Source: a virus (Duplodnaviria; Heunggongvirae; Uroviricota; Caudoviricetes). Taken from it: DNA of 42,950 nt. Each line of letters opens with the position of its first letter. The first letter of the stretch is position 1. Position numbers: made by a program. Below, piece after piece: positions 27,001-30,000 of the stretch. Location: the IMG/VR virus record IMGVR_UViG_2778261513_000004, one strand, 5' to 3'.

Positions 27001-30000
27001 ATTCAAATAGATTTCTCCGAGTAATATAATCATTTGCTTTTCACCAGAGGATAACTTGTCAAGTCCTATTGTGCCACCTTCAGTTCTCATCACAAGTTCG
27101 TTTTTCTTCGATAATAGAAGAGTTTTTCCATTTTGGAAGAACATTCTAAAAACTTCAAAAAAATCATCTCTACTTCTGAATATTTCAATTTTCTTCTTTT
27201 TGAGAATCTCATAGTCTGCAATTAAAGACCTTGTCCTCCAAGCATTATACATAACACCAAAATCAGTTAAAGACATTGGCCCACTGCCATCACGTTCTGA
27301 AACATCTTTAAGACGTTTCAAATAATAATCCAGTCGACTACTATCATAATTACTTTTATTTTCATTCATAAACGAAAGCATTTCATGCAAGGAAGAAGCT
27401 TCTTTTTCAATATCAATTTTACTGTTAAATTCGAATATCGAATTTTCGCTCGGAACATCTAATAATTTATTAAATATACTTTTTTGAAAATTACTTGCTA
27501 TTCTATTATATGCCTGAGACTGCCTAGAGAACTTACTTATTAAAGCGGATTTAATTGCGTTTAGCTTTTCATCAACCGGATCACTGCCTTCATTATTAAA
27601 ATAATCATGTTCGTCATTATCACCTCTTCCCTTTCTTGAAAGTGGAATCAGGCTAAGTTGTGATATTTTAGATACCATAACTTTTAGTTCCATTACCCTT
27701 CCTTCAAGCAAAAAATCATATTCGTCATTACTTAATTCATATTCAGATATAACGCCTTGCTCTGTATATATGGAATAAGTCATATTTCCATCACCATTTT
27801 TCGCGACCATTATTACATGATTTCCATATAGACTAACAATAGCTCTTGAAAATGACAGCAAATACATTTGCTTGACATCCACTGAAAGCAAGGCACAGAT
27901 GATGTTAATAACAGTAGTTTTACCTGCACCATTTGACCCAATCAGGAAATTCATGTCTTTGTTAAAAGACAGTGATATATCTTTATACCCCCAGATTCCC
28001 CACGCCTTAAAAGAACTTATTTTACTCATCTTTCATCCTTTAGTTAATGTTCACCATAAATATCGTTATCGGTTACTTTGCCTGAACAGTTATAAAAACT
28101 CAAATTGAAGATGCTCTTTTTCTGGAAATATTTTAGGGTAAACTGATTGCAACCAGTAATAGTTGCTGACCTTACTACCAGCATCAGGATTTTGGTCATA
28201 TCTAAGTATGCATATGCTTTCCCAAAAGATACCGATACACACTAATGAATCGGGACGTTATGGCACATAAATCAGAGAAGGAGGTTTGTTGTCTCATAGC
28301 CCCCAATTTTGGGGGACAGGTTTGAAAATAGTAGAGAAAAGTCAGCGTTGACCTGGCTCCCTAGGATAGCCCATAGATTACTAAACAGTTCGTGGTATCA
28401 GAACACAGTAAAATCTGAAAGTCGACAAGAGCGAAAAGCAGAAGTGATATGTGTGAACGATGAAATAGCCAGCTAAAAGAATGACGACCAAAGCAGTGAC
28501 GATTCAGACGTCCGTTCCTGGCACGAAGCGGACAAGTTACCGGAGCTGAAGATCCGCTGTGAGCGAGAAACGGAAGTTGGTTTGCTGGTAGCAATCTAAA
28601 AGTGAATGGTCCGGTTAAGTTGGGCGTTTACAGTTACTCGGCAAACTACTCCAGCTTGATGAATAAGTATTTTTAATAAATTTCAGCCCGCGATGCCGCG
28701 GACATTCATACGGGCTGTTATATTACCAGATTAAGGTGTCACTAAAGGTGTGGTGTGGCTACCTATCACGTATTCTTTCAGAAAAAGACGTACTTCTGAT
28801 TAGAAAGGAATATCATCGTTCTTAACGGCATCATCAGAGATGAGAGCACCTGTTGGCAGAGGTACATTACTTACAGTATATAAATTAAGAATGTCTTCCC
28901 GGTCCATAAATATTATCTGGCTTCTTTTGCTGGCATCAAGTTTCCCGCCCAGCCAGTTCCTCGCCTGTTTAGTAATTTCTCCGCCAGCAACGATAAAGGC
29001 ATGATCTACCAGCACCTTTCTATTTGTTTCTGGGTCAAATATTTCATGACCAAGCATCATCAGTACCTGGTTGAAGATTTCTGCCACGTTTGAATTCGTA
29101 GATTTGCTGGCACCGGACGCATCCAACTTACCTTTTTTTGCCTGAATGCCGAAATAAAGAACATGCTGAGTTGGCAGTGTGAACTTCATCCAGATGTCTT
29201 TCCCGTATTCCAGCGCTTTATCTTTATGTCCCACTGCTGTTATCCGGTGAAAACCAAGTTGCCGGAATAAAGGAAGGAGAATATCTTCTATTAACTCATC
29301 TTCTGAGCAGGTATCAAGAAACGCGGTCAGTAACCTTCTGCATTCTACTTCGTGAGGCGTTAAGGGGCGATGAGGGTTATTACTGACAGAAACCGTTTTG
29401 GTATCGGTATGGCGTATATACAAAAGGCGATCGTCACCATAGAATGCCTCATAGCCTTCCCGCATCAAAGGCTTGTTCAGTTCTTCAAGCGCCTTTAATC
29501 TTCCTGGATCGTCATCCATTGCATCTTCTTTTAACATTAAAGTTCTGAGCACATGAACAAACCTTTCCGGCAAAGTATGTGGCTTTGACTGTGGCTCATA
29601 AAGAAGTTCTTCAAGCCTCTGGGCCGTCCATTTCCACCGAGTTGATCCGTCATGAGTAACATCCATGCCGCAGTCCTGGAAAAATTCAGTGATGTGGCTG
29701 CTTGAACGATACAGAAATGCCTTATTATCTCCTATGATACATTCCGCGAGAGCCTTGAGGTTTTTGTCCTTAAATTTCATGTGTAATAATCTCCCCCTCG
29801 TTTAGAATATAGAATTAATTGCAGGCACCGCTTGTTCGGGTGACTGTTAGCGGTTCACTACTCATTACCACTTATTCATACAAAGAAACACCCGAGGCAG
29901 TTGTTGGACAGGTATAAGTGGCGGAACCTTCATACATTAAGTGTCTCCCCATCATAATGGTGTCAAAACGTCACGGCAACAGGATTAACAAACTCCCGTT

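Follow-up and report, generated by a model that had tools for sequence, protein, structure and literature searches.

A mobile gene family encoding a predicted Mrr-type nuclease with a C-terminal tip that resembles the tip of the host single-stranded DNA-binding protein

Restriction nucleases of the EcoKMrr (Mrr_cat, PF04471) and MspJI families are encoded by solitary genes without a cognate methyltransferase and use the D...QxK form of the PD-(D/E)xK active site, and Shedu SduA and the effector Cap4 are stand-alone or effector PD-(D/E)xK nucleases with an N-terminal regulatory domain that occur in defence islands. To our knowledge, neither Mrr nor MspJI has a C-terminal tip like that of the bacterial single-stranded DNA (ssDNA)-binding proteins (SSB). 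The latter end, behind a disordered Pro-rich linker of about 50-60 residues, in a terminal hexa- to octapeptide with lineage-specific variants (SSB-Ct), which is the route to ssDNA for many replication, repair and recombination proteins and for phage recombinases such as Red-beta. Host clients of SSB-Ct include ExoI, RecQ, PriA, chi, primase and RecO, and DnaG and chi are documented readers of it; in phage T7, the helicase-primase gp4 and gp2.5 both have acidic, Phe-terminated tails, so that a non-SSB protein shares the SSB docking site on a partner. The conserved C-terminal hexapeptide of SSB, DDDIPF, binds the SSB partner proteins (PMC5872125), and Red-beta engages the last seven SSB residues, which places phage recombinases among the readers of SSB-Ct (PMC13490951). 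Here we describe a gene of the virus record IMGVR_UViG_2778261513_000004 (Caudoviricetes; the whole stretch of 42,950 nucleotides is called the window in the following), the 326-amino-acid (aa) product of which shows a remote Mrr-type nuclease fold, retains the catalytic signature, is predicted to be active as a nuclease and ends in an SSB-Ct-like tip. This host-matched tip is the main feature overlooked by the initial annotation, which had been made from the DNA sequence alone, and no description of a non-SSB protein with a host-matched SSB tip and no precedent for it were found in the searchable literature.

The gene is an open reading frame (ORF) with an ATG start at positions 28800..29780 (stop codon 28800-28802); coordinates and length had been given correctly in the initial annotation, and the strand, which was not given there, is the minus strand. 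A Shine-Dalgarno sequence, GGGGGAG, can be read at 29791..29797 (minus strand), 10 nt 5' of the ATG, and in E. coli the RefSeq entry of the product is the hypothetical protein WP_023147794.1. The protein is composed of an N-terminal domain (residues 1-130; 29391..29780), an Mrr-type PD-(D/E)xK nuclease-like domain (residues 141-306; 28863..29360), a flexible linker (residues 307-320, PLPTGALISDDAVK; 28821..28862) and the SSB-Ct-like tip (residues 321-326, N-D-D-I-P-F followed by the stop codon; 28803..28820), all encoded on the minus strand. Besides the translation, these boundaries are based on an alignment of 128 sequences, which are 43-90% identical to the window protein, and on an AlphaFold2 model built from them, with a mean predicted local distance difference test (pLDDT) score of 82.6, and the nuclease-like domain in addition on Foldseek. 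An earlier AlphaFold model, for which 30 close homologues had been used, had a weak C-terminal domain (pLDDT 71) and gave no significant fold matches; it is superseded by the 128-sequence model.

The C-terminal tail has the properties of an SSB tail. The linker starts with a conserved P-L-P, continues with a hypervariable stretch and differs in length between members; mean column entropy rises to 2.85 bits for residues 310-319 and falls to 1.07 bits for residues 321-326, compared with 0.70 bits for the nuclease domain, which is the most conserved part of the protein. P325 and F326 are conserved in 99% of the sequences. The tail is predicted to be disordered and not docked onto the body of the protein (pLDDT <50 for residues 315-324, about 46 in the tail). 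The window protein, with the C-terminus ...AVKNDDIPF, therefore has an acidic tip of the SSB type, ending in [IVLP]-P-F, behind a disordered linker, and the family consensus is (F)DDDIPF. An [IVLM]PF end is present in 114 of 120 close homologues, 44 of which end in DDDIPF, and in 105 of 118 divergent ones, and many members carry all eight residues, DFDDDIPF, of the C-terminus of E. coli K-12 SSB (...PPMDFDDDIPF). When 5,099 ORFs of at least 80 aa from all fetched loci were searched for the tip pattern, it was found in 79 family members, in E. coli SSB and in one other ORF. As judged from this pattern of conservation, the tip is under selection.

The protein is not itself an SSB, as it does not match PF00436 (the control, E. 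coli SSB, matched at 4.6e-41) and its model is of the alpha/beta type without an oligonucleotide-binding (OB) fold. It shares with bacterial SSB the position of the tip at the very C-terminus, the disordered Pro-rich linker and the lineage-specific variants, and differs from it in the body and in the linker, which measures only about 14-25 residues. From T7 gp4 and gp2.5, which belong to a phage replisome and carry another motif, the family differs in that its tail copies the SSB of the host and is attached to a predicted nuclease.

The lineage-specific variants of SSB-Ct reappear in the family. The E. coli SSB heptapeptide is FDDDIPF and the alpha-proteobacterial one LDDEIPF (5,795 assemblies; PMC13490951), whereas mycobacterial SSB ends in DDEPPF (PMC7847540) and Streptomyces SsbA in DEPPF (PMC3616714). 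Six named actinobacterial members, from named plasmids and genomes, have the tails ...TDEPPF (M. lentiflavum), ...NDEPPF (R. rhodochrous), ...SDEPPF (Sphaerisporangium), ...DGPPF (R. opacus), ...HYPPF (S. alkaliphilus) and ...NNELPF (C. glyciniphilum). A PPF end is found in five of these six copies and in none of 79 non-actinobacterial loci (Fisher p = 1.8e-7), L at position -7 in 13/27 alpha-proteobacterial and 0/21 beta/gamma-proteobacterial copies (p = 1.5e-4), E at position -4 in 17/27 and 3/21 (p = 1e-3), and F at position -7 in 0/27 and 12/21, respectively (p = 4e-6), values which are overstated because related sequences were treated as independent. The closest plasmid relative of the Streptomyces protein, an alpha-proteobacterial copy from an Ensifer plasmid, is 75% identical to it and ends in ...DGDLPF. 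The tip thus appears to track the host SSB, with PPF in actinobacteria, L..E.IPF in alpha-proteobacteria and F..D.IPF in beta/gamma-proteobacteria, where the host tips, except for that of E. coli, are those of model species of each phylum or class and not of the same genomes. Three lineage-specific matches and a switch after transfer across phyla would be difficult to account for if the tip were not recognised by the resident readers of SSB tips. We consider it somewhat more probable than not that the gene encodes a stand-alone, horizontally mobile nuclease for which molecular mimicry provides the link to the SSB interaction network.

Some variants of the tail were noted in addition. In the linkers of actinobacterial members (L091, L097, L098; P0229, P0132, P0287), P-W recurs a few residues ahead of the tip, as in ...NPWTTTDEPPF, ...SPWALSNDEPPF and ...DPWATASDEPPF, and the C-terminal peptide of mycobacterial SSB, WGSAPASGSFGGGDDEPPF, also contains a Trp (PMC7847540), so that the mimicry may reach beyond the last six residues. 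Natural tail-less variants are represented by an Acinetobacter clade (L083, A. modestus; L084, A. halotolerans; L090, A. bereziniae), the 312-aa proteins of which end in ...NSIDVPEII after the nuclease domain and have neither linker nor SSB-like tip. In a Blastocatellia metagenome-assembled genome (L038), the family member has the atypical C-terminus ...EDFDVSLPRV, without a PF tip, and about 4.5 kb away lies an unrelated 179-aa ORF (4905-5444, minus strand; likely start M12, MESLATS...), which ends in ...VPPDDEMPF and matches neither SSB nor any other Pfam family; SSB-tip mimicry may accordingly not be confined to one family.

For the C-terminal half of the protein, a PD-(D/E)xK or Mrr-type pattern had been proposed in the initial annotation, and an Mrr-type domain is supported by an invariant motif, the order of the fold elements, Foldseek matches and the recurrence, below threshold, of Mrr_cat. 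Residues E160, D161, G193, K194, D195, Q213 and K215 are invariant in the alignment. Three of them form the catalytic motif D195-x17-Q213-A-K215 (DIWMKFTLPTQHVLYFGIQAK; 29136..29198, minus strand), and the strings on which the proposal was based, G193-K194-D195 and Y209-FGIQAKK-216 with Q213, K215 and K216, are present with a D-to-Q spacing of 18 residues. The pair E160-D161 (29298..29303, minus strand), at the start of helix alpha-1, is the candidate for the first acidic residue of the active site and, in an alignment by eye, stands at the place of the conserved E in the EcoKMrr segment 'FEvivldvLhrLGY'. In the 128-sequence model, helices are formed by residues 160-174 and 230-242 and strands by residues 177-180, 196-201, 207-215 and 254-265; the resulting order, alpha-beta-beta-beta-alpha-beta, matches the PD-(D/E)xK core fold, and D195 and Q213-x-K215 fall on strands 2 and 3, as expected for enzymes of this type. 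The local pattern of EcoKMrr, ...LHRLGY...DGGIDG...VYVQAKRW...VFITTSGFTSQARDF, resembles that of the family also outside the catalytic residues, namely in a helix with 'LxxLGY/F' before strand 1 and in a segment after strand 4 ('TSG-ftsqAR' in one and 'AGGEITKQAR' in the other).

Comparison of the model with known structures by Foldseek, which had been suggested as a check, placed restriction-type nucleases at the top with marginal E-values, and no phage housekeeping family (PHROGs) was matched. The top PDB matches were FokI (E = 2e-3, probability 0.89), MspJI (probability 0.97), Cap4, BstEII, AvaII, EcoT38I, EndoMS and EcoO109I, and Mus81 was also among the matches; in BFVD, proteins named 'Restriction endonuclease' and 'Restriction endonuclease type IV Mrr domain-containing protein' were found with probabilities of 0.95-0.98. 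The cleavage domain of FokI, one of the restriction-type PD-(D/E)xK domains that must dimerise in order to cut, is thus the best PDB match and a possible precedent for activation by induced proximity, but its identity to the family is only about 12%, and dimerisation-dependent cutting by the latter is suggested by analogy. Among divergent members, Mrr_cat was the most recurrent Pfam family (7/117, best E = 7e-4, below threshold); divergent members score 14-15 bits and do not reach the gathering threshold of 21 bits. An hhalign comparison of the family profile with the single EcoKMrr sequence was not significant (probability 0.6%), and neither was BLASTP. Some source databases label members of the family as 'restriction endonuclease' or 'PDDEXK family nuclease'.

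The initial annotation had also pointed to an R-x5-H pair, which is indeed present in F177-H-R179-ITAVG-H185; R179 and H185 are at least 90% conserved, and no function can be attached to them. A phospholipase D-type HKD reading of 'GHKDK' was rejected on inspection, since the spacing does not fit HxK(x)4D. This segment belongs to a near-invariant loop, G184-H-K-D-K-A-L-E-Y-G-K194 (29199..29231, minus strand), which leads into D195 and which, with its 11 residues before the catalytic Asp, distinguishes the family from Mrr and MspJI. G184, L190, E191, G193 and K194 are invariant, and H185, K186, D187, K188, A189 and Y192 are at least 90% conserved. Residues 183-193 (29202-29234) are at the same time the only low-confidence stretch inside the nuclease domain (pLDDT <50), and low confidence despite near-invariance across phyla suggests that the loop is mobile or ligand-dependent; it could be regulatory or bind a ligand or partner.

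The N-terminal domain is modelled with high confidence (pLDDT 83-95) as five helices and a beta-hairpin and contains the invariant residues G17, Y24, R25, F34, H43, R48, L81, L101 and G109. Searches with the full-length protein and its model gave no specific fold or family match for it, including modification-reader folds, and within the limits of these searches no relationship to the N-terminal domains of Mrr and MspJI was seen. A solitary type IV-like (Mrr/MspJI-like) nuclease, in which this domain would read modified or foreign DNA and the tail would act in cis as a DNA-mimicking autoinhibitor without any SSB client, agrees with the Mrr-type motif and fold, with MspJI as the PDB match of highest probability, with a solitary gene that has no conserved methyltransferase partner, and with an acidic, disordered tail. 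Moreover, an SSB tail can contact the OB fold as well as partner proteins (PMC3616714). This explanation nevertheless appears quite unlikely to us, because an intramolecular contact gives no reason for host-matched tips in three lineages or for their switch after transfer, the tail is undocked in the AlphaFold model, and the N-terminal domain matched no known modification reader. Its precedents are the acidic tails of SSB, T7 gp2.5 and T4 gp32, which have been reported to mimic DNA at the DNA-binding cleft of the same protein.

That no family could be recognised for the protein still holds: the window protein had no match at E<=1 in Pfam, PADLOC, PHROGs or NCBIfam, and searches of PDB sequences with the single sequence or the 128-sequence profile gave no match. 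The PADLOC-DB version used, v2.0.0, dates from 2023; later defence systems were covered by a search of the literature, which yielded nothing relevant, as it did for the family, the RefSeq accession and SSB-tail mimics or decoys in defence. Homologues are nevertheless numerous. A word-indexed search gave 3,877 homologues at E<=1e-3, the best 120 of which are 69-99% identical and, where full-length, nearly all 325-329 aa long, and an exhaustive search of 50%-identity representatives gave 1,165 clusters at the same threshold, with fragments being frequent among them. The family is present in at least 406 of 185,579 species-representative genomes, including gamma-, beta-, alpha- and delta-proteobacteria, cyanobacteria, Acidobacteria, Planctomycetes, Verrucomicrobia, Bacteroidales, Synergistota, Hydrogenedentota and Actinobacteria, and on 47 plasmids, of which 25 are conjugative. 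Together with thousands of metagenomic sequences, it forms a large family of 'hypothetical' proteins for which Pfam, NCBIfam, PHROGs and PADLOC have no model. The identity of about 70% between the E. coli protein and its cyanobacterial, Bacteroidales or Synergistota counterparts is remarkable. In a few distant relatives, an unrelated N-terminus replaces the N-terminal domain, and a small divergent branch without the tail (P0255) provided no bridge to an annotated family.

The genomic neighbourhoods were surveyed at 36 genome loci, where ORFs were called and the two nearest on each side scanned (141 ORFs). No Pfam or PADLOC family occurred in more than five of the 141 ORFs, the recurrences at this level coming from related Paracoccaceae islands, methyltransferases were encoded by only two, and the neighbours differ among Ruficoccus, Vibrio, a cyanobacterium, Klebsiella, Streptomyces and the plasmids. 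Of the three options offered in the initial annotation, a stand-alone effector, a third component of the adjacent gene pair or an unrelated moron, the first fits best because no partner gene is conserved. The neighbours found include type I restriction-modification genes, methyltransferases, MADS, Thoeris ThsA/SIR2, Lamassu LmuA, Gabija GajA, a retron RT-Toprim, NERD+UvrD, HigB, integrases and transposases, individual loci have a NACHT NTPase or RES/HEPN and PIN proteins as neighbours, enterobacterial plasmids carry vapBC and an AAA ATPase near the gene, and an Ensifer plasmid carries an ABC-three-component system. The tightest juxtaposition with a defence gene in this analysis is found on a metagenomic actinomycete integrative and conjugative element (ICE) with Replic_Relax and TrwB-like transfer genes (L093), where 35 bp separate the end of a Shedu gene (SduA_C; 8757-9965, plus strand) from the family gene, which follows in the same orientation. 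As to the co-occurrence with defence genes that had been named as a check, the surroundings are rich in defence and mobile-element genes, but no fixed partner exists among the 36 loci. They suggest a defence role and do not prove it, as the survey had no background control. The resemblance to Shedu SduA and Cap4, the latter being among the fold matches, has its limits in that the family has no PADLOC match, shows much stronger conservation than is typical of defence proteins and carries the SSB-like tip.

If the gene encodes a nuclease coupled to the SSB network, as we favour, the proteins that normally read SSB-Ct would bind the tip, and this binding would place, cluster or release the nuclease on replication or recombination intermediates coated with SSB, with cutting of the DNA at these sites. 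The coupling might consist in recruitment of the nuclease to its targets, in recruitment of host exonucleases and helicases to its cuts, or in triggering of the nuclease. The biological role would most likely be the exclusion of competing phages or plasmids, because the gene is found in prophage moron slots, defence islands, plasmids and ICEs. The prophage in the window also encodes RecT, and since the RecT family belongs to the SSB-Ct readers, one element would carry both the mimic and a potential reader; the Qin-type E. coli carriers described below have no RecET within the stretch examined, so that there is no obligate link to RecET. Should the tip function in the manner implied by the covariation, mimicry of the ligand of a hub protein would be a novel means of aiming or triggering a nuclease, and it may be a new logic for bacterial immunity or for competition between mobile elements. 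The proposal is directly testable by simple genetics and peptide-binding assays on a 1.5-kb cassette.

Several points weigh against this reading. Host clients of SSB would bind the tip constantly, and the host's own replication forks would have to be spared from damage. As to the nuclease, the window protein has no Pfam match, the best Foldseek E-values are only 2e-3 to 1e-2 (probabilities 0.89-0.97) and come from whole-protein alignments, and the hhalign comparison was made with a single Mrr sequence and was not significant. As to the covariation, its p-values are inflated and its host tips mostly those of model species, as stated above, and there are exceptions, i.e. the Corynebacterium copy (...ELPF), the tail-less Acinetobacter clade, the heterogeneous tips of cyanobacteria and the small tail-less branch with a different N-terminal domain. 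For a defence gene, an identity of about 70% between phyla is out of the ordinary, and it would be equally compatible with a role in DNA metabolism; the neighbour counts carry no background control.

The triggering mode would suit a more specific proposal, that of an integrated decoy, in which the host-matched tip would serve as bait for proteins of an invader that dock on host SSB, such as annealases of the RecT/Red-beta type. Several baited nucleases would be gathered on ssDNA by multimeric readers, which would bring their Mrr-like domains together in a FokI-like manner, i.e. with activation by clustering, and the replicating or recombining DNA would be cut; an invader could escape only at the cost of its own binding to SSB, and this constraint would also explain the conservation of the protein across phyla. 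We regard the decoy as unlikely.

The same conservation, which is extreme and usual for partners of conserved host machinery, could instead reflect a non-immune function, i.e. an accessory nuclease of mobile elements in replication, recombination or repair, for instance a structure-specific endonuclease, the tip of which would assemble host SSB clients on DNA intermediates of the element and so aid its establishment or maintenance. The gene does occur on conjugative plasmids and ICEs, the Ensifer copy stands beside xth, ligD, imuA and error-prone polymerase genes, EndoMS and Mus81 are among the fold matches, and the prophage in the window encodes RecE as well as RecT. What makes this improbable in our view is its sporadic occurrence and its surroundings: the gene is present in 3.5% of E. 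coli genomes, and the family is essentially absent from phages, with no match by tblastn in 50,697 GenBank phage records and 22 among about 2.9 million viral contigs. It is not consistently linked to modules for replication or recombination, the genes found most often beside it are those of defence and toxin-antitoxin systems, and the window copy lies in a moron slot by PARIS and hok/sok. An assignment as a plasmid leading-region gene was rejected for the IncF example, on which the gene is located among fimbrial and toxin-antitoxin cargo.

Its position outside the leading region also bears on a role as an anti-host or anti-defence factor, the tip of which would titrate or block the SSB-Ct pockets of exonucleases and helicases and thereby shield incoming DNA of a mobile element, with the nuclease fold being secondary. 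Carriage on mobile elements and the match between tip and host SSB are in line with such a role, but a titrating peptide needs neither an invariant catalytic motif nor a body of 300 residues with 70% identity between phyla, and one tip per polypeptide competes poorly with abundant, tetrameric SSB. We therefore consider it very improbable.

The element in the window is a Rac-type lambdoid prophage which, read on the minus strand, has the gene order integrase, RecE (Exonuc_VIII), RecT, SieB, immunity region, YdaT, DUF1376/T5orf172/DnaT replication protein, lambda-P-like protein, DUF1627, DUF977, the 326-aa gene, PARIS, hok/sok, nin genes and Q-like antiterminator. The gene thus occupies a cargo (moron) slot between the replication and nin genes and adjoins PARIS; the gaps are, as annotated, 770 bp to ariA (26827..28029) and 419 bp to the DUF977 gene (30200..30679), and an Rfam scan of these two gaps gave no match. 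The identification of the neighbouring ATPase/Toprim pair as PARIS proved right: AriA matches PADLOC PDLC04164 at 2.6e-41, and AriB (DUF4435) matches as well.

The gene and PARIS are neighbours in one slot and both are prophage-borne cargo, but they are separate cassettes without any sequence relationship. In a megablast comparison of window positions 25900-30200 with 5,426 complete E. coli genomes, one set of genomes matched positions 25900-28533, which hold PARIS with its upstream region, and a separate set matched the stretch 28553-30113, with a break between 28533 and 28553. Exactly the stretch 28553..30113, a self-contained cassette of 1,561 bp that comprises the gene, 333 bp upstream and 247 bp downstream and moves as a unit, is at least 99% identical in 191 of the 5,426 genomes (3.5%), where it is flanked by hokD/rem and an integrase remnant of a Qin/DicA-type prophage that lacks PARIS. 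Six IMG/VR prophage contigs encode an identical protein, have exactly the 1,561 bp in common and no AriA or AriB within 6 kb. The G+C content is 0.42-0.44 in the cassette, 0.32 in PARIS and 0.47-0.54 in the phage backbone. That the gene might be a third component of PARIS, an AriA ABC ATPase plus AriB Toprim nuclease system, had been considered in view of its co-orientation with the pair and its position 770 bp upstream of ariA. The two were adjacent in none of 215 matching E. coli genomes, PARIS occurs alone in a P2-like prophage (L002), and the gene occurs alone in the 191 E. coli genomes, the six contigs and at least 406 species-representative genomes; with the different G+C contents in addition, a PARIS component is extremely improbable. 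The 'island' is two unrelated, independent cassettes stacked in one slot, and not a three-gene system.

Within the cassette, a promoter-like site, TTGCCG-17-TATGAT (29951..29979, minus strand; 9/12 in a consensus scan), is located about 170 nt 5' of the ATG and is a candidate only, as the promoter and terminator scan of the region did not give more sites than shuffled sequence. A G+C-rich hairpin with a weak U-run at 28684..28717 (minus strand), 83 nt past the stop codon, is a possible terminator; its predicted folding energy is -18.7 kcal/mol (z = -2.3 relative to shuffles), and it was not called by the terminator scan.

Further observations concern the other genes of the prophage. A copy of the PARIS cassette proper (25918-28533; ariB, and ariA with some 500 bp of its upstream region) that is 97% identical to that of the window lies in E. 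coli Ecol_AZ159 between the tail-sheath and tail-fibre-assembly genes of a P2-like prophage. The presence of the same defence cassette in both prophages indicates a transfer between hot spots of the P2 and the lambdoid type. Directly downstream of PARIS, at 25035-25210 (minus strand), follows hok/sok, with the sok antitoxin RNA scoring 105 bits in Rfam (gathering score 59), and at 24796-24876 (minus strand) there is a sub-threshold match to the small RNA isrK (33 bits compared with 50). RecE (1,040 aa; Exonuc_VIII and the PDDEXK-like DUF3799), RecT (350 aa) and SieB are encoded at 36774-40960 (plus strand) and 35002-35457 (minus strand). The replication-initiation protein (31844-33121, minus strand) is a fusion of three parts, with DUF1376 at the N-terminus, T5orf172/MUG113 as an inserted domain and, in addition, a DnaT DNA-binding domain, a composition which is unusual for a lambdoid O-like protein.

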